This document shows positions 3,489 to 61,973 of a stretch of 64,000 nt of DNA, in pieces. A model generated the notes under the pieces. It saw only the letters and a program-made list of their open reading frames with translations, was not told where the DNA came from and did not search any database. This stretch comes from Candidatus Omnitrophota bacterium (lineage in GTDB: Bacteria; Omnitrophota; Gorgyraeia; Tantalellales; Tantalellaceae), in contig JBARQV010000006.1 in the NCBI GenBank assembly GCA_049643885.1, positions 19,234 to 83,233 on the forward strand, written 5' to 3'. The position numbers and the translations under genes are program-made. The first letter of the stretch is position 1, and every line of letters starts with the position of its first letter.

Positions 3489-3752
3489 CACATGTTGGAT
3501 GTTGGATAATCGTAAGCATGAGAGTGAATCGAGGATCAAAAATAGGATACCAGGTTAATAGAGCATCAGGGGGCAGGATATCAGTTGATCAGTATATCAG
3601 GAAGCATTTCTGCCCGATCCCCTGATATCCAGAATCCTGCTTCCTGATAATCTGATTTCCCGATGACCTTTATTTCGAAATTGTATGTTTGGTACTGTTT
3701 GGGATTTGTGTATTGGAATTTCTTGCAATACAACCGGTGATAGAGGGCAGAA

Positions 3753-4637
3753 GTGGAAGAATACATCGACCAATTTATAGATTTCATGGAAGTTGAACGC
3801 GGGGTAAGCCCGAATACTATCGAATCTTACCGGAGGGATATCGAAAAGTTCGTTTCTTACCTCCGTTCCGTAAAAAAAGACCTGGCAAAAGCCGACCGCG
3901 AGGAGATCATGGATTTCATGATGAGCCTCAAAAGCAAAGGCCTTTCCGCGTCGACTATCGCCAGAAATCTTGCTTCGCTAAAAACATTCTGGAAGTTCCT
4001 TGTGATGGAGAGGATAGTGCCCGAGAACGTCGCTGCGGTCATCGAGACCCCAAAGACCTGGAAGACCATCCCTGATGTGCTGAACAAACAGGAAGTGGAG
4101 AAGCTTTTGAACGCTCCCCCGCGCAAGGGAACGACCGGTGTCAGGGACAGGGCCATACTTGAACTGATGTACGCGACGGGCTTGAGAGTCTCGGAAGTCA
4201 AGGACCTGAAAAAGGCGAATGTCAACCTTGAAGCGAGTTTTGTAAAATGTTCAGGGAAAGGGGGCAAGGAGCGTGTGGTGCCTCTGGGAAGCTTTGCTAA
4301 AGACGCGGTGGCAAAATACGTGAGCGGAGCCAGGCAGAAACTTTCGCGTAAGATCGAAGACGATCATCTGTTTTTATCTAAGCTGGGGAAATGTCTTTCC
4401 CGCCAGAGTATATGGAAGATGATCCGGAAGTACGCCAGACAGTCCGGCATAAAGAAGCATATTACACCCCACACCCTGAGGCATTCGTTCGCTACGCATC
4501 TATTGGAAGGCGGGGCGGAACTCCTCGGGATCCAGGAAATGCTAGGGCACGCTGATATATCGACGACGCAAATATACACGCATATAAATAAGGATAAGCT
4601 CAAGAAGGTGCATGAGAAGTACCACCCGAGAGCGTAG
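3753..4637 (+). CDS. xerD: tyrosine recombinase XerD (GTG start)
   Basis: N-terminal SAM-like domain. C-terminal R...HxxR...Y catalytic residues (HTLRHSFATHLLEGG...Y). 294 aa, the canonical Xer size. Confidence 0.8.
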   Translation: MEEYIDQFIDFMEVERGVSPNTIESYRRDIEKFVSYLRSVKKDLAKADREEIMDFMMSLKSKGLSASTIARNLASLKTFWKFLVMERIVPENVAAVIETPKTWKTIPDVLNKQEVEKLLNAPPRKGTTGVRDRAILELMYATGLRVSEVKDLKKANVNLEASFVKCSGKGGKERVVPLGSFAKDAVAKYVSGARQKLSRKIEDDHLFLSKLGKCLSRQSIWKMIRKYARQSGIKKHITPHTLRHSFATHLLEGGAELLGIQEMLGHADISTTQIYTHINKDKLKKVHEKYHPRA

Positions 4638-38233: not shown

Positions 38234-38309
38234 GGGGCAGTAGCTCAGCTGGAAGAGCATCACGTTCGCAACGTGGGGGTCGTGGGTTCGAGTCCCATCT
38301 GCTCCACCA
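38234..38309 (+). tRNA. tRNA-Ala (anticodon CGC)
   Basis: Cloverleaf folded by hand. G3:U70 Ala identity pair, anticodon loop TTCGCAA, encoded CCA. Confidence 0.85.
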
Positions 38310-38313
38310 ACAA

Positions 38314-38349
38314 TAAAAAAACCCTTCAGTTTTTCTGAAGGGTTTTTTA
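38314..38349 (+). terminator. rho-independent terminator (cccttcag/ctgaaggg stem plus T-run; A-run on the 5' side, possibly bidirectional)
   Basis: Perfect 8-bp GC-containing stem followed by TTTTTT, directly after the tRNA. Confidence 0.6.
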
Positions 38350-38366
38350 TTGTCGTTCCGTTCCCA

Positions 38367-38530
38367 TTAAACGTTCATCAGACGTTTGACTCATCTGAAT
38401 GTTGAAAAGGCCCGGGGGTGTATTCCGTGCTCAGACAGTCCAAAAAAAAGCGACCTAAAATCGCTTTTTTTTGGAAACTCGCACTGAACACACCCCCGGA
38501 CCTTTCCGTAACCCTGATCAGATCAAGCAT
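38367..38530 (+). repeat. F1 structured repeat, copy a (about 165-bp imperfect palindrome centred on the perfect hairpin ccaaaaaaaagcga...tcgcttttttttgg)
   Basis: About 90% identical to copy b at 41146-41312 in the same orientation. Internal long inverted repeats. Confidence 0.75.
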
Positions 38531-38544
38531 CTGAGTGAAGAAAT

Positions 38545-38710
38545 TTGTGATTTTTATTGCCTGGACTGTTCCGTACAGGGCTTTAAATTTCCGAGCGGGC
38601 ACGGTTCGCCCGTGTCCTAACTTCCGGCGAGAGCGAGGAAATTTTAGAGTCCGATTTTCTCGCTGGGAAAAGCGGACGTCCCTGGTAGGAACGGACAGGT
38701 AATAAAAAAA
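38545..38710 (+). repeat. F2 structured repeat, copy a (about 165 bp, 25-bp terminal inverted repeats ttattgcctgg.ctgttccgtacaggg / ccctggtaggaacggacagg.aataa, two internal hairpins)
   Basis: About 95% identical to copy b at 59266-59431 in the same orientation. Confidence 0.75.
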
Positions 38711-38745
38711 CCACGAATCACGAACCACGAACGACGAACCACGAG
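38711..38745 (+). repeat. tandem heptamer (cacgaa[c/t]) x5 microsatellite
   Basis: ccacgaatcacgaaccacgaacgacgaaccacgagg, read directly. Abuts F2a. Confidence 0.6.
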
Positions 38746-38801
38746 GGGCGCGACTTGACTTTTCGGGAGAATAGGGCATATTTGTTACTTAAGGAGGTGG
38801 T

Positions 38802-38978
38802 ATGATGAAAATAATTTCTTGTTTATTAGCTTTGGTCGGGTTGGTCTGTATAGCCTTTTCGATCCTCATGAAGCTCAAAGGGATCAATCTTCTGGGAGCC
38901 GGCGCCCCGGTATCGTATTTAGTGCTTGCGAACACCTTCTTTCTTCTATCGATCTCTGCGGCGATGCATAAAAAGTGA
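38802..38978 (+). CDS. hypothetical small membrane protein (58 aa; below the cutoff of the ORF track)
   Basis: Strong RBS AAGGAGGTGG 5 nt upstream of ATG. Two predicted TM helices. Confidence 0.4.
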   Translation: MMKIISCLLALVGLVCIAFSILMKLKGINLLGAGAPVSYLVLANTFFLLSISAAMHKK

Positions 38979-39145
38979 TAAAAATCCTTGTTTAAGGGGA
39001 CATGATCTGTTTCCCGTAAAGATCCCAGGCTTAATTGCTTGGGATTTTTATTTCTGTGGCGTATAATATGGTACTATGCGGGGTATAAAAAACAGCTCTT
39101 GAAACGCGCCGAAGCGGTGCTCTCATGAAACGAGGTGTTACAGGC

Positions 39146-39505
39146 ATGAAAAAGCTTATACTTAAAACGTTCATTATTCTTTTTCTGGCCGTTTTTTCTA
39201 CGGCCTCGGCCCGGGGAGCAGGGGATATCGATCTTTCAAAGATCCCGGACGGTGTATATAAGGGTAAATGCAGATATTACGGGATGTTTACGTGCGAGGT
39301 GGAAGTAAGGGTGCGCGACCACCGGATAACCGATATCAAGGTATTTGAGGACAGGGAAAGTGAATATGTGGAACAAGCCAAGGGTGTTACTAAGAACGTG
39401 ATAAAGGAACAGTCTTTGAAAGTTGATACTGTCACGGGAGCTACAATTACCAGCCGGGCGATACTTAAGGCCATAGAGAACGCGTTGGCGAAAAAGGGTA
39501 AGTAA
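39146..39505 (+). CDS. secreted FMN-binding-domain protein
   Basis: Signal peptide, C-terminal ...VDTVTGATITSRAI motif of the FMN_bind domain (PF04205-like). Start trimmed to MKKLILK. Confidence 0.55.
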   Translation: MKKLILKTFIILFLAVFSTASARGAGDIDLSKIPDGVYKGKCRYYGMFTCEVEVRVRDHRITDIKVFEDRESEYVEQAKGVTKNVIKEQSLKVDTVTGATITSRAILKAIENALAKKGK

Positions 39506-39520
39506 AAAAAGGGGGATACG

Positions 39521-39640
39521 ATGAAAGTTAAAGAAGCAGGAGAAAATTACAGGTGCAACATTTGCGGCAATGAGGTCACCGTGACGAAAGCGGGAGGGGG
39601 AGAACTTGTCTGCTGCGGTCAGCCGATGGAAAAAATATGA
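39521..39640 (+). CDS. desulforedoxin (39 aa; below the cutoff of the ORF track)
   Basis: [12 protein letters not shown]...[12 protein letters not shown] matches the desulforedoxin CxxC...CC Fe(Cys)4 signature. RBS GGGGGA upstream. Its stop overlaps the next start (ATGA). Confidence 0.7.
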
Positions 39641-41124
39641 AACGGTTTCTCCCGGCAGTTCTGGTTTTATTTCTGCTATCCGTCTCGTGGAACGAAGCTT
39701 CCGGAAAAATGGCCGACCTAGCGGGCTCGTGGTACACGGCTGATCCCCGCGCTCTTGAGGCCGAGCTGAAAGATTACCTGGACAATGCCGATGTCCCCCC
39801 GGTCGAGGGGGATATCATCGGCCTTGTGGCTCCCCACGCGGGGTTCAGGTATTCCGGTCCCGTAGCGGCATATGCGTATAAAGCGGCCTTGAAGCAGGAT
39901 CCGGACCTGGTTGTAATTGTCGGTTTTTCCCACAGGAAATATTCCCCCTGGATATCGGTTTTTACCGACGAGAGTTTTGTCACGCCGCTCGGCCCCCTTG
40001 CCGTTGACCAGGAGCTATCCCGTAAGTTGATGGCTTCAAATGAAAAGATACAAAGCGTTCCCGGGTTGTTCGAGCAGGAAAATTCGGTAGAGATGGAGAT
40101 CCCGTTCGTGCAGGTCGCTTTCAAGAACGCCCGGGCGGTGCTGGTAGCTGTAGGCGAGCAGAGCCGGGAGAATTTCCATATCCTGGGAGACGCCCTGTAT
40201 GAAGTTCTGCGTGGTGAGAAGAATTTCATAATTATCGCGAGCACGGACATGTGCCATTATCTGCCTTATGAAGAGGCGAACACGCGGGACGCAATGACGA
40301 TCAAAGCTATAAAAAGCTTCGACCCGGATAATTTTTATTCCGTGAGCCTGAAAAACAGGCATGAACTGATGTGCGGTCCGGGGCCTGTCTGCGCGACGAT
40401 GCTCGCGTGTAAAAAACTGGGCGCGGACAAGGTCGAAATATTGAAATATGCCAATTCCGGCGATACTTCGGGAATGAAGGACCGGGTCGTCGGTTACCTC
40501 AGCGCGGCTTTTGTCAGGAGCGGAGGAAGAAAAGCCGGGGAGAAGCCGGCGGCAGTAAAGGAGGGCAGCGAGATGTTTACTCAGGAGCAAAAAGATAAGC
40601 TCTTGAAGATCGCAAGAGACACTATGCGTCATTATCTTGAAACCGGGAAACGCCTTGAAGTGGACGTCGAGGACGAAGCCCTTAAAGAAGATATGGGCGC
40701 GTTCGTGACCCTTCATGAGAAAGGGAAGTTAAGAGGATGTATCGGCCATATGGTCGGCACACAGCCTTTTTACCTTACTGTAAGGGATATGGCGATCGCG
40801 TCGGCCACCGAAGATCCCAGGTTTCCGCCGGTTACAGCGGGTGAGCTGGACGATATTGATATTGAGATATCCGCGCTTTCCCCGATGAGGAAAATAGACG
40901 ATTACAACGAGATCAATATCCCCGGGCAGGGTGTAATGGTCAGGATGGGTTTCCGCAGCGGAGTTTATCTTCCCCAGGTCGCGATAGAGACCGGTTGGGA
41001 CAGGGACCAGTTCATGAACAGCCTCTGCGCGCATAAGGCCGGTATCCCCATGGATGCATGGAAAACAGGGGCATGCGATATATACGTCTTCGACGCGGAA
41101 GTATTCGGGGAAAAAGAAAAGTAG
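39637..41124 (+). CDS. fused MEMO1-family (AmmeMemoRadiSam system protein B) / AMMECR1-domain (protein A) protein with a signal-peptide-like N-terminus
   Basis: MEMO1 motifs (GSWY..D, APHAG..YSG, TDM(C)HY) in aa 25-300. AMMECR1 motif (GAFVTL...LRGCIG) in aa 330-495. The N-terminal 22 aa are hydrophobic; an alternative start at the Met inside [11 protein letters not shown] is possible. Confidence 0.8.
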
Positions 41125-41145
41125 TATCGTGATCCGTATATCGTG

Positions 41146-41312
41146 TTAAACGTTCATTGGATGCTTGACTTATCTGAATGTTGAAAAGGTCTGGGGGGTG
41201 TATTCCGTGCTCAGACAGTCCAAAAAAAACGACCTAAAATCGCTTTTTTTTGGAAACTCGCACTGAACACACCCCCAGACCTTTCCGTAACTCTGATCAG
41301 GTTAATCATCCA
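41146..41312 (+). repeat. F1 structured repeat, copy b
   Basis: See copy a. Lies between the MEMO1-AMMECR1 stop and the rsmE start. Confidence 0.75.
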
Positions 41313-41347
41313 CAGGCAATAAACAAATCGATGATGACTAACGAACA

Positions 41348-42094
41348 ATGAGCAGATTTTACGTTCCAAAAGAAAAAGTAAATCAAGCGAGAAACGAGAT
41401 CCTCATCGACGGTGAAGAAGCTCATCACATCCTCGATGTCATGCGGCTCAAGGATGGGGATACGCTCGTCGTCTTTGACGGCACAGGGGTCGAATACTCG
41501 GGTTTTATCAAGAAAGCGGATCCGCGCTCGAAAGCCTTAACGGTTGAAATAATAAGGATCGATAAACCGGCCGCGGAAAAGATACCGGAGATCATCCTGG
41601 CCCAGGCGATCCCAAAGAAAGCCAAAATGGAGCATATCATAGAAAAGGCCACGGAACTGGGCGTTTCCCGCGTTATACCGCTGGTCACCGGCAGGACCAT
41701 AGTCAGGCCCGATGAGACCGGGCGTGAGAAGAAAGTCTCAAGATGGAAAAAGATCGCTGCCGAATCGTCAAAACAATGCGGCAGGGTAGACGTCCCGCCG
41801 GTCGAAGATATCACCAGGTTTGAGGACCTGGTCAAGACCCTCGATGAATACGACCTGGCGCTTCTGGCGCATGTTTCGGAAAAGACTGAACCGATCAAAA
41901 AAGCATTGGCAGATTTCAGGTCCGGGAAGATAATCGTCTTTATAGGCCCGGAAGGGGATTTCACTCCCGATGAAGTTAAAATGACCGAAGGCAAAGGCAA
42001 TTGCAGGCTGGTATCCCTTGGCAGCCGGGTCCTCAGGGCTGATACGGCCGGTCTTTTTGTCCTCTCTGTCCTCAATTACGAATTCTCGATGTGA
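41348..42094 (+). CDS. rsmE: 16S rRNA (uracil1498-N3)-methyltransferase
   Basis: RsmE family: N-terminal PUA-like domain and C-terminal SPOUT domain. Confidence 0.85.
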   Translation: MSRFYVPKEKVNQARNEILIDGEEAHHILDVMRLKDGDTLVVFDGTGVEYSGFIKKADPRSKALTVEIIRIDKPAAEKIPEIILAQAIPKKAKMEHIIEKATELGVSRVIPLVTGRTIVRPDETGREKKVSRWKKIAAESSKQCGRVDVPPVEDITRFEDLVKTLDEYDLALLAHVSEKTEPIKKALADFRSGKIIVFIGPEGDFTPDEVKMTEGKGNCRLVSLGSRVLRADTAGLFVLSVLNYEFSM

Positions 42095-51689: not shown

Positions 51690-52901
51690 ATGGATATCAA
51701 AAAGATAGGTATAATGACCAGCGGTGGCGATTGCGGCGGGTTAAACGCAGTTGTCAAAGGTGCGGCTGATGCTTCGATCAGATCAGGAATAAGATGCTTT
51801 GTCATACCGAACGGGTACGCGGGGCTATATAATCTTATCGATTTCGATGAATTGATCGAGCTCACAGAACGGCGGACTGATCTTATAGATGCCAACCCGG
51901 CCGGTTCCGAGGCGGGGCATTCCAGGGTCAAGATAAAGAAGATAAAAGACGAAAATAAATATGAACGCATCAAGAAGGGCCTGGAAAAGTTCGGGATAGA
52001 CGGCCTTGTTATCAGCGGGGGAGACGATACCGGCAGCGTTATCATAGACCTTTTTAAGCACGGTATCCCGTGCGTCCATGTCCCTAAGACCATGGATCTC
52101 GATCTTCAGACGTATTCGGTCGGAGGTGATTCCACGGTCAACCGCATAGCGAATTTCGCGGAAGACCTGAAAACTACCGGGAAGACCCACAACAGGGTCA
52201 TCGTTCTTGAAGTGTTCGGCAGGTATGCCGGGCATACGGCCTTGCGAGGCGGCGTAGCCGCCGATGCGGACGCGGTATTGATCCCGGAAATACCTGTCGA
52301 TTTTGATATCTTGTACGTCCATGTCAAGGAAAGGCTTACGAAAAGGATCCTCGGGAGCGATGTCCATGCCGGAACATATCTTATCATCGCGGCCGAGGGG
52401 CTTAGAGACGTCAGCGGAAAAGCGATCGTTGATGAAAGCACGGGAGTCGACGCTTTCGGACATAAAAAACTCGCGGGTGCGGGTAAATATGTCCGCCAGG
52501 AATTGTCTAAAAGATTTAAGGTCGATCCGGAAATAGTCGATTTCATGAAGAAATCCCACATGTATGTCGAAGAGCTTTATGTTGCGCCTGAGGTGCGCGA
52601 GGTGACTCCGGGGCATCTTGTGCGTTCCGGGCGAAGCTCCGCGTATGACGTGAATTTCGGAAGGGAAGGCGGATCTGCAGCAGTAGCTCTCCTGAAAAAC
52701 GGCATAACAGGCGTTACGGTGGCGGGGGTCTCCGGTAAAGAGGTCCGTTACATGTCGACCGAAGCAGCCATAAAGCCGAGGCACGTAGATCTGGACCTTG
52801 TCAGCCTTTATGAACAGCTCGGCATCTGTTTCGGCAGGGATCCCGGAAAATTCACTCCTACGTTTAAAGAGCTGGAAAAAGCCCCTGAGAGGTTTCTATA
52901 A
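51690..52901 (+). CDS. pfk: 6-phosphofructokinase (PfkA family, possibly PPi-dependent type)
   Basis: GIMTSGGDCGGLNAVV...GGDDT...MDLD motifs. 403 aa. Confidence 0.85.
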   Translation: MDIKKIGIMTSGGDCGGLNAVVKGAADASIRSGIRCFVIPNGYAGLYNLIDFDELIELTERRTDLIDANPAGSEAGHSRVKIKKIKDENKYERIKKGLEKFGIDGLVISGGDDTGSVIIDLFKHGIPCVHVPKTMDLDLQTYSVGGDSTVNRIANFAEDLKTTGKTHNRVIVLEVFGRYAGHTALRGGVAADADAVLIPEIPVDFDILYVHVKERLTKRILGSDVHAGTYLIIAAEGLRDVSGKAIVDESTGVDAFGHKKLAGAGKYVRQELSKRFKVDPEIVDFMKKSHMYVEELYVAPEVREVTPGHLVRSGRSSAYDVNFGREGGSAAVALLKNGITGVTVAGVSGKEVRYMSTEAAIKPRHVDLDLVSLYEQLGICFGRDPGKFTPTFKELEKAPERFL

Positions 52902-52994
52902 ATGAGCACATGATTTACGAACACGATAGTGTCCGTAAATCATAAGTGCGAATTTATCCCGTCCGACATAAAAACGCCCCAAGCGGCGTCGGTG

Positions 52995-53369
52995 ATGATA
53001 ACGGACGGGATAACTCAAACCATGATAACGAATGAACGAAGAGCTTTCAAGAGGGTGAACAATAGGTTTAACGTAACTTTTAAACCCCTTGATGATCCGG
53101 GAACCAATGCTGGCAGTTCATTTACAAAAAATATCAGCATAGGCGGGGTTTATTTTACCAGCCTTAAAAAATTCGACATAGGACAACTTGTAGACTGCCG
53201 CATAGGTGTTCCCGGAGCAGCCAAAGAGGGCAAATGGACCGGAAGGGTCGTCCGCTGTGAAGACCTGGAAGATCATGTAGTGGACACGTACGGCATTGCC
53301 GTCGAGTTTGTCAGATCTTTCGGCAACGCGGAAAAAGATTTAAAAAAAGCGCTGGAAAAAGACCTGTAA
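52995..53369 (+). CDS. PilZ-domain protein
   Basis: RRAFKR...ISIGG c-di-GMP-binding motifs. The ORF is open from 52929, so the start is uncertain. Confidence 0.6.
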   Translation: MITDGITQTMITNERRAFKRVNNRFNVTFKPLDDPGTNAGSSFTKNISIGGVYFTSLKKFDIGQLVDCRIGVPGAAKEGKWTGRVVRCEDLEDHVVDTYGIAVEFVRSFGNAEKDLKKALEKDL

Positions 53370-58961: not shown

Positions 58962-59002
58962 GCACCGGGCGGAGGGGCCCTGGTAGGGAATATGCTGCAC
59001 TG
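58962..59002 (+). repeat. F3 repeat, partial copy a (right arm: gcaccgggcggaggggccctggtagggaatatgctgcactg)
   Basis: 40/41 identical to part of F3b at 61879-61919. Confidence 0.6.
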
Positions 59003-59265
59003 CGCAACTTATATCCGAACGAAAAATAGCTCTGCAAAAACAATAAAATCTTTCCCATCCAAATTTTTTAACGGTATTTTTCTAACTTTCGAAGGGCATA
59101 AAAGAACTCGCCCTTTTTGATTTCTTCCGGAAGAAATCAAAAAGGGCTCAAACATCCTTTTACGCTGTTTTCCTTCAAAAGTTATAAAAATACCTAAAAT
59201 TTGGCAATGGGTCCCTTTGATCTTATTGTTTTTGCTGAGCTAATCATCTACTAGTAACAAAAACG

Positions 59266-59431
59266 TTCGTGATTTTTATTGCCTGGCCTGTTCCGTACAG
59301 GGCTTTAAATTTCCGAGTGGGCACGGTTCGCCCGTGTCTTAACTTCCGGCGAGAGCGAGGAAATTTTAGAGTCCGATTTTCTCGCTGGGAAAATCGGACG
59401 TCCCTGGTAGGAACGGACAGGCAATAAAAAA
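59266..59431 (+). repeat. F2 structured repeat, copy b
   Basis: See F2a. Confidence 0.75.
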
Positions 59432-59473
59432 TCGAAGTCAATAGTGTCGAGATAGCTTGACAACCATCCAAAA

Positions 59474-59513
59474 ATATGTTAACATATGAACAGTTGTTCA
59501 TATGTTAACATAT
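59474..59513 (+). promoter_or_regulatory. ArsR/SmtB-type operator: perfect 10-2-10 inverted repeat CATATGAACA-GT-TGTTCATATG nested inside flanking ATATGTTAACATAT palindromes
   Basis: Read directly from the sequence. Lies 18 nt upstream of the arsR start. Confidence 0.6.
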
Positions 59514-59530
59514 TAGCTTGGGGAAGAAAT

Positions 59531-61844: not shown

Positions 61845-61925
61845 TATAGTGCAGTATGTTCCCGTACAGGGAGGATCCACACCGGGCGGAGGGGCCCTGG
61901 TAGGGAATATACTGCACTGTATAGT
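61845..61925 (+). repeat. F3 repeat, full copy b: about 28-bp-stem hairpin (tatagtgcagtatgttcccgtacaggg...ccctggtagggaatatactgcactgtata)
   Basis: Read directly. Lies between the feoB stop and the radical SAM start. Shares the gtacaggg/ccctggtag core with the F2 termini. Confidence 0.65.
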
Positions 61926-61973
61926 TTACATTCGCGACAGGACCCGCCTCCGCAATACGATATACAAGGGTGC

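Follow-up and report, generated by a model that had tools for sequence, protein, structure and literature searches.

A long hairpin repeat of a Candidatus Omnitrophota lineage is probably a module of mosaic, non-autonomous small interspersed elements

Two palindromic repeats of about 165 bp, here called F1, stand on either side of a short operon in a 64,000-nucleotide stretch of a Candidatus Omnitrophota genome (GenBank assembly GCA_049643885.1, contig JBARQV010000006.1, positions 19,234 to 83,233; the whole stretch is called the window below). Are they the borders of a movable block of genes, terminators of transcription, or small mobile elements in their own right? All three had been offered by the original prediction, which was made from the sequence alone. 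The option resembling a MITE (miniature inverted-repeat transposable element) is the best supported of them: the spacer occupied by the copy F1b is missing in three relatives, and a third copy, F1c, lies at an unrelated locus, although neither a target-site duplication nor, in the window, a transposase was found. F1 is probably the hairpin module of a mosaic, non-autonomous family of small interspersed repeats that resembles MITE, ERIC (enterobacterial repetitive intergenic consensus) and BOX/BIME (bacterial interspersed mosaic element) families and is found in one lineage of Candidatus Omnitrophota. The copies in the window and their cores are as follows.

38367..38547, + strand: F1a, a long imperfect hairpin repeat of ~165-181 bp (pairwise repeat comparison, fold, profile search)
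38440..38474, unstranded: core of F1a, a perfect A8-GCGA-loop-TCGC-T8 mini-hairpin (read from the sequence)
41146..41323, + strand: F1b, the second copy, which fills the MEMO-AMMECR1/rsmE spacer 41125-41347 (repeat comparison, fold, profile search, synteny)
41220..41253, unstranded: core hairpin of F1b, with one G lost and a G/C stem of 3 bp (alignment to F1a)

F1a (38367-38531) and F1b (41146-41310) have the same orientation and are 91.6% identical over 166 columns (E 2e-60), which bears out the two direct, about 90%-identical copies first reported. A three-copy profile search (nhmmer) lengthens F1a to 38547 and F1b to 41323, F1b having lost its outermost 3′ part, and nhmmer profiles of F1 and of a second repeat, F2, detected no diverged further copies in the window or in any fetched locus. 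On both strands each copy folds as a single long imperfect hairpin, with −75.3 (+) and −93.0 (−) kcal/mol for F1a and −68.3 (+) and −71.9 (−) kcal/mol for F1b; fold z-scores range from −7.4 to −11.2, and none of 200 shuffles matched the native stability. The long imperfect palindrome ascribed to each copy is thus real, and it extends over the entire length of F1, not just its ends. The A8/T8-flanked central hairpin, ccaaaaaaaagcgacctaaaatcgcttttttttgg, had been described as perfect in each copy; it is so in F1a, whereas F1b lacks one G. In the core, G/C pairs make up a stem of 4 bp in F1a but of 3 bp in F1b and F1c, and U8 is paired to A8. The second stem around it (cccgggggtgt/acacccccgg), also foreseen, is present and in F1b carries paired changes (tctgggggg/cccccaga). 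When F1a, F1b and F1c are aligned, the 63 stem pairs are 94.7% paired, the outer helix of 22 pairs is 89% paired, and 4 of the 63 pairs have changed on both sides with pairing kept. The 3′ half is near-invariant across the three copies, and the invariant 47-mer region is CGACCTAAAATCGCTTTTTTTTGGAAACTCGCACTGAACACACCCCC.

The metagenome-assembled genome (MAG) GCA_049645405.1 (L014) differs from the window at 3 positions in 10,120 nt, two of which, at 41258 and 41285, fall in the 3′ arm of F1b and are transversions left uncompensated; they point to relaxed constraint, local hypermutability or an assembly error at the hairpin. A 33-codon open reading frame (ORF; 41250-41351) has its TTG start in the same arm and an ATGA overlap with the start codon of rsmE, a gene without an obvious Shine-Dalgarno sequence in the window and with GAGGG in relatives. 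This ORF is probably fortuitous, since it is frameshifted in F1c. A coding small ORF was likewise rejected as the identity of F1, as short ORFs across F1 are not conserved between the copies, and a spurious 133-aa ORF spanning F2 and F1 gave 0 matches as a protein query.

The genes around F1b are as follows.

38234..38309, + strand: tRNA-Ala(cgc) (tRNA search), at the same position in the relatives L008 and L009
38316..38348, unstranded: bidirectional terminator-like hairpin of the tRNA-Ala gene (consensus terminator scan)
38802..41124, + strand: resident operon between the F1 copies (ORFs, Pfam, translation), the first members of which are the genes for a 58-aa membrane protein and an FMN_bind protein (Pfam)
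39521-39640, + strand: desulforedoxin-type protein (Pfam)
39637-41124, + strand: MEMO-AMMECR1 fusion (Memo+AMMECR1; Pfam)
41348..42094, + strand: rsmE-like 16S rRNA methyltransferase, which overlaps or abuts MEMO-AMMECR1 in relatives

Pfam assignments agree with the gene content that had been proposed for the block (membrane protein, FMN-binding protein, desulforedoxin and MEMO1-AMMECR1). The window is a core chromosomal segment with pnp, ftsK, uvrA, dnaG, rpoD, the RNase P RNA and tRNA genes, and its sequence recurs in several MAGs and assemblies at 99.97-100% identity; its proteins carry the name Candidatus Omnitrophota, and GCA_049642145.1, GCA_049644805.1 and GCA_049645405.1 are MAGs of this population. 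Three further Candidatus Omnitrophota loci (L007, L008 and L009) serve as relatives, their MEMO-AMMECR1 proteins being 65-70% identical to that of the window. The gene order that L008 and L009 share with the window is deacetylase, tRNA-Ala(cgc), variable small genes, MEMO-AMMECR1, rsmE, mtaB-like, cvpA, NIF3, dnaG and rpoD; L007 starts 48 bp upstream of MEMO-AMMECR1 and has the same order from there. No gene stands between tRNA-Ala and MEMO-AMMECR1 in L008, and L009 has a 173-aa protein and an FMN_bind gene there, the latter at the place equivalent to that in the window. The MEMO-AMMECR1 to rsmE junctions compare as follows.

L007: 8-bp overlap
L009: 4-bp overlap
L008: 8 bp apart
Window: 223 bp apart, filled by F1b

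Neither sequence comparison nor profile search matched F1 or F2 in the L007, L008 and L009 loci. Because these relatives keep the gene order with an overlap or an 8-bp gap and have no 223-bp spacer, F1b is, judged by gene order, a lineage-specific insertion that parted two genes once coupled in an operon, and the same comparison makes MEMO-AMMECR1 a resident core gene. The tRNA-Ala(cgc) of L008 (5763-5838) lies on the opposite strand with its flanking genes in unchanged positions, which indicates a small local inversion.

The element is also found away from this operon. An exact 22-mer scan of JGI metagenomes led to one contig, Ga0163203_1011321 (L006), with the third copy, F1c, which is 93.9% identical to F1a and 90.9% to F1b. 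F1c has a CPBP protease gene on one side and a STAS-like gene on the other and runs opposite to both, and F1 as a whole occurs in both orientations relative to neighbouring genes. The closest non-self matches to the L006 CPBP protein are only 74-78% identical, and the F1c host therefore appears to differ from the organisms of these matches, one of which (L011) is from the same metagenome as the window. F1c is a copy at an unrelated locus in what appears to be another Omnitrophota population. Since F1a resembles F1c more than it does F1b, the sequences indicate that the family diversified before the copies reached their present sites. In a genome collection, an exact 20-mer scan gave only a chance match, in a Coriobacteriia MAG, and because this 20-mer is variable even in F1c, absence elsewhere says little; viral contigs, phage records and plasmid records held nothing relevant. 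No empty site for the L006 composite was definable from the contexts of the CPBP orthologues L010-L013, each of which has a different downstream gene.

All three copies lie inside or abut termini of the type that bounds the F2 repeat.

38340..38364, + strand: TTTTTTATTGTCGTTCCGTTCC, a half terminus of F2 type that adjoins F1a on the left and is complementary to F2a at its right end
38544..38712, + strand: F2a, a repeat bounded by terminal inverted repeats, adjoining F1a and 96% identical to F2b
38712..38746, + strand: tandem array of five CACGAAC-like heptamers that follows F2a, complementary to the left-side GTTCGTG/GTCGTTC motifs
41312..41331, + strand: F2-type right-terminus remnant abutting F1b, ACAGGCAATAAACAAATCGA (compare F2b at 59417-59435, ACAGGCAATAAAAAATCGA)
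59266-59434: F2b, 96% identical to F2a

The half terminus at 38340-38364 overlaps the T-tract of the tRNA-Ala terminator, a complete F2 element follows F1a downstream, and an imperfect duplication of ~20 bp of the F2 left arm flanks F1a; folded as a whole, 38335-38750 gives nested hairpins (z −8.8). F1c has on its left a flank of the same type, ATTGCCTGTCCGTTCCTA, which is identical, in inverted orientation, to the right terminus of F2b, TAGGAACGGACAGGCAAT. F1b is abutted by ACAGGCAATAAA, and 19 of 20 positions of ACAGGCAATAAACAAATCGA, on its right, agree with the end of F2b and its flank. The composites of F1a and F1c both end in CACGAAC-like heptamers. Because the flanks of all three copies carry F2-type termini, F1 seems to behave as a module within elements bounded by such termini, like the modular BOX or BIMEs.

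A run of CACGAAC-like heptamers also follows the F2-type element in L006 (1750-1775). The inverted termini of F2a and F2b are ~28 nt long (TTTTTATTGCCTGG.CTGTTCCGTACAGGG / CCCTGGTAGGAACGGACAGGCAATAAAAA). F2a lies ~50-100 bp upstream of the start of the membrane protein/FMN_bind/desulforedoxin/MEMO-AMMECR1 operon, and F2b is placed likewise for the arsR-feoB operon; this placement may be a coincidence or may affect the promoter or leader.

From these arrangements we infer both a route of mobility and any effect of F1 on RNA. The copies would owe their spread to transposition, or to a related way of copying, provided in trans, F1 travelling within, or inserting into, F2-type termini (TTTTATTGCCTGTCCGTTCCTA and its complement) to give mosaic clusters in intergenic spacers. 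F1a would have landed together with the F2 element downstream of tRNA-Ala, and F1b in the previously overlapping MEMO-AMMECR1/rsmE junction. Where F1 is co-transcribed, it would form an imperfect RNA hairpin of ~60 pairs with an A8/U8 core, which could attenuate read-through or serve, between cistrons, as a site of processing or stabilisation.

MITEs span a size range of 50-800 bp (PMC11602168). The class was taken here as non-coding elements of that size with terminal inverted repeats of at least 10-15 bp, a target duplication of 2-10 bp, dispersed copies whose sites are empty in relatives, and a cognate autonomous IS or transposase with ends that match. F1 is non-coding and 165-181 bp long; its inverted ends are the 22-pair outer helix, though the whole element is palindromic; and it is dispersed, with two copies in 64 kb besides F1c and with the F1b spacer absent in 3 of 3 relatives.

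Several points weigh against a mobile repeat family. First, F1 is known in only three copies, of which this genome has two, and the exact-match scans of the large collections were narrow. Second, the aligned flanks of the three copies show no consistent short duplication that could be identified as a target-site duplication, and F1a and F1c share a composite context and are not independent insertions. Third, the window has no transposase, RAYT or Y1 gene, its only recombinase being XerC/D-like (3753-4637) and 34 kb off. Fourth, seven contigs of the same species show no presence/absence polymorphism. Finally, the covariation controls are weak with three sequences: 41 of 500 shuffles reach the count of doubly changed pairs and 8 of 500 reach the covariation score.

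Known repeat families help to place F1. Correia elements of Neisseria, which are MITEs, have a TA target duplication. They also have defined 26-bp terminal repeats, more than 100 copies, promoters and an IHF site, none of which is shown for F1. However, they too are inverted-repeat elements of 100-200 bp between genes, and their hairpin transcripts are possible substrates of RNase III (PMC10969869). ERIC, a 127-bp imperfect palindrome classed as a MITE, shares with F1 a length of 100-200 bp, an intergenic position, probable transcription, a fold into one hairpin and an occurrence in related species (PMC10969869). In contrast, ERIC belongs to another phylum and no sequence relationship was found; F1 has the A8/T8 core, ERIC has 30-700 copies, and effects on mRNA decay were shown by experiment for ERIC and are inferred for F1. 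The small pneumococcal repeat families BOX, RUP and SPRITE cluster and insert into each other, BOX being modular, and like F1 they cluster in nested fashion and occur in one lineage, with hardly any in relatives (PMC3049150). SPRITE has a terminator-like stem and U-tract, and target duplication has not been established for it (PMC3049150); it differs from F1 in having an 18-bp duplex with a U-rich tail instead of a 60-pair hairpin, and the mobility of F1 is deduced from three copies. REP, BIME and REPIN elements form intergenic mosaic clusters of palindromes, often within operons, with compensatory changes that preserve the hairpin (PMC3184786, PMC3116915). REP units, however, are 20-40 nt long, G+C-rich, headed by GT[AG]G and tied to RAYT, whereas F1 is four times longer and has an A/T core, and no RAYT is encoded in the window. 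Analogues of F1 that cluster, nest or resemble terminators have been published (PMC3049150, PMC10969869).

F1 might instead be a host cis-acting RNA element (a bidirectional terminator, an attenuator or a stabiliser of mRNA 3′ ends) that was duplicated and selected and is not selfish; this is considered unlikely. The core resembles a symmetric terminator, A8-hairpin-U8, that reads alike on both strands, F1 lies downstream of genes, paired changes maintain its hairpin, its 3′ half hardly varies, and SPRITE repeats co-opted as terminators provide a precedent (PMC3049150). However, an intrinsic terminator was taken to consist of a G+C-rich stem of at least 5 pairs and a short loop followed by a U-tract, and F1 was rejected from this class: the G/C stem of its core is 3-4 bp, and the consensus scan that calls the neighbouring tRNA terminator at 38316-38348 does not call the F1 cores. 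The tRNA gene upstream of F1a thus already has its own terminator. Besides, F1b splits two genes whose translation is coupled in relatives, the ancestral operon would be cut by a strong terminator placed between MEMO-AMMECR1 and rsmE, and none of L007-L009 has F1 at these sites. The bidirectional terminator of the original prediction is therefore possible but weak. By analogy with Correia (RNase III), ERIC (RNase E) and SPRITE (terminator-like) elements, partial attenuation or RNA processing at the long hairpin would be the likeliest effect of F1 (PMC10969869, PMC3049150).

A second alternative retains mobility and replaces a DDE transposase by an enzyme that recognises hairpins in single-strand DNA (as in REP/REPIN with RAYT, or IS200/IS605-like), or by site-specific integration with F2-type termini as the target. 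It agrees with the palindromy along the whole of F1, with the failure to find a short target duplication, with the same position of the three copies relative to an F2-type terminus and with the imperfect ~20-bp duplication at F1a, yet the chance given to it is small. The window encodes no RAYT or Y1 transposase, F1 far exceeds REP units in length, and, with three copies of which two share a composite context, independent targeting is not separable from copying of the composite. REP/REPIN was rejected as a class for F1, whose hairpin is ~165 nt with an A/T core. In its most specific form, which we would regard as an outside possibility, F1 integrates site-specifically into the F2 terminal arm, as the abutment of all three copies on the same F2-type terminus and the arm duplication at F1a might suggest, and may be held at 94% identity across Omnitrophota species by selection on the hairpin. 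If true, a phylum that has been little studied would have a system of nested repeats that is specific for its target and depends for its movement on a non-DDE enzyme (HUH or tyrosine recombinase).

That F1 is a family of small structured RNA genes is very unlikely. The fold is very stable, F1 is 94% identical between two organisms, and the cores of F1a and F1b each contain a weak promoter-like match (CAGACA-17/18-TAAAAT). However, such matches are at chance level (6 found against 3.4 expected), the Rfam 15 covariance-model search, judged at the gathering score, returned tRNA only and left F1 and F2 unmatched even at E <= 5, and F1 takes both orientations relative to neighbouring genes. Because G-U versus C-A asymmetries in the stem favour neither strand, a single-strand RNA function is not indicated by the sequence.

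The weakest alternative, that the F1 copies are recombination substrates or att-like sites making the desulforedoxin/MEMO-AMMECR1 block a movable or excisable cassette, or that the block is a genomic island beside tRNA-Ala, takes account of ~165-bp direct repeats, 92% identical and 2.8 kb apart, beside a tRNA gene, and of the gene set between tRNA-Ala and MEMO-AMMECR1 that differs among relatives, but it is highly improbable and largely refuted by synteny: MEMO-AMMECR1 keeps its place beside rsmE in three F1-free relatives, Pfam finds no recombinase or integrase within the block, GC content and composition of the block are not anomalous, F1 and the tRNA gene do not overlap, the seven contigs with the locus all show one arrangement and none is without the block or either F1 copy, F1c stands alone at an unrelated locus, and F1 does not, as judged by eye, fit the R″/R′ core sites of integron attC. 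In an integron, each single-gene cassette bears at its 3′ end an attC, an imperfect palindrome that has RYYYAAC...GTTRRRY cores, and IntI is nearby. As such F1 was rejected, its ends (TTAAAC.../...GTTTGA) being a misfit to these cores, the block consisting of four genes, MEMO-AMMECR1 holding the same position in relatives, and the sole tyrosine recombinase of the window being XerC/D-like and 34 kb away; a tRNA-linked genomic island was considered and rejected as well. On the reading of F1 as a mosaic repeat family, the same orientation of F1a and F1b around the 2.6-kb operon segment is incidental.

As a mosaic interspersed repeat, F1 is a new family of a well-known class, biologically ordinary, in an under-studied phylum. 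A full-text literature search returned no paper pairing Omnitrophota with MITEs, and small interspersed repeats are, as far as that search shows, apparently undescribed there. F1b is a case of an operon junction split by insertion, and the locus carries a practical warning that paired repeats around genes are not the same as cassette borders. Independent assemblies break within F1a, F1b, F2a and a 216-bp palindrome, and the F1/F2 elements explain the breaks of metagenome assemblies of this population at these points.

F1 and F2 are two of at least five repeat families in the window, the others being the following.

1250-1360 and 52899-53009: a 110-bp family, its two copies inverted relative to each other
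58963-59017 and 61880-61934: D3
59027-59242: the 216-bp palindrome

Local inverted repeats of at least 24 nt number 8 in the 64-kb window against 0 in 43 kb from relatives, and the spacers that bear repeats are outliers in fold energy (z −7.4, −8.2 and −9.4). F2 and the otherwise different D3 have one motif of the stem in common, TTCC(C)GTACAGGG ... CCCTGGTAGG(G)AA. Its internal mismatch, GTA/GTA, is symmetric, and 4 matches to the motif were found against 0.2 expected.

38568-38580/38680-38691: stem motif
59290-59302/59402-59413: stem motif
61860-61871/61895-61906: stem motif
58978-58989: stem motif

This motif could be a recognition site for whatever moves F2 and D3. The two inverted copies of the ~110-bp family (1229-1360 and 52899-53020 with their margins) are 86% identical, and copy 1 adjoins tRNA-Pro and is flanked by a 17-bp direct repeat, AAATCATGTGCTCATTT (1229-1246 and 1343-1360). 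Since copy 2 also keeps one good and one degenerate version of it, this repeat is probably part of the element and not a target duplication. The imperfect 216-bp palindrome has its own central hairpin. Two independent assemblies have contigs that stop within it, at 59178 and 59039, and this suggests that the genome has more copies in other places. A near-perfect 42-bp palindrome at 59473-59514, ATATGTTAACATATGAACAGTTGTTCATATGTTAACATAT, lies immediately upstream of an ArsR-family regulator gene and is probably the operator of that regulator. Overlapping inverted repeats also occupy 3567-3669, in the spacer just upstream of the XerC/D-like tyrosine recombinase gene (3753-4637).

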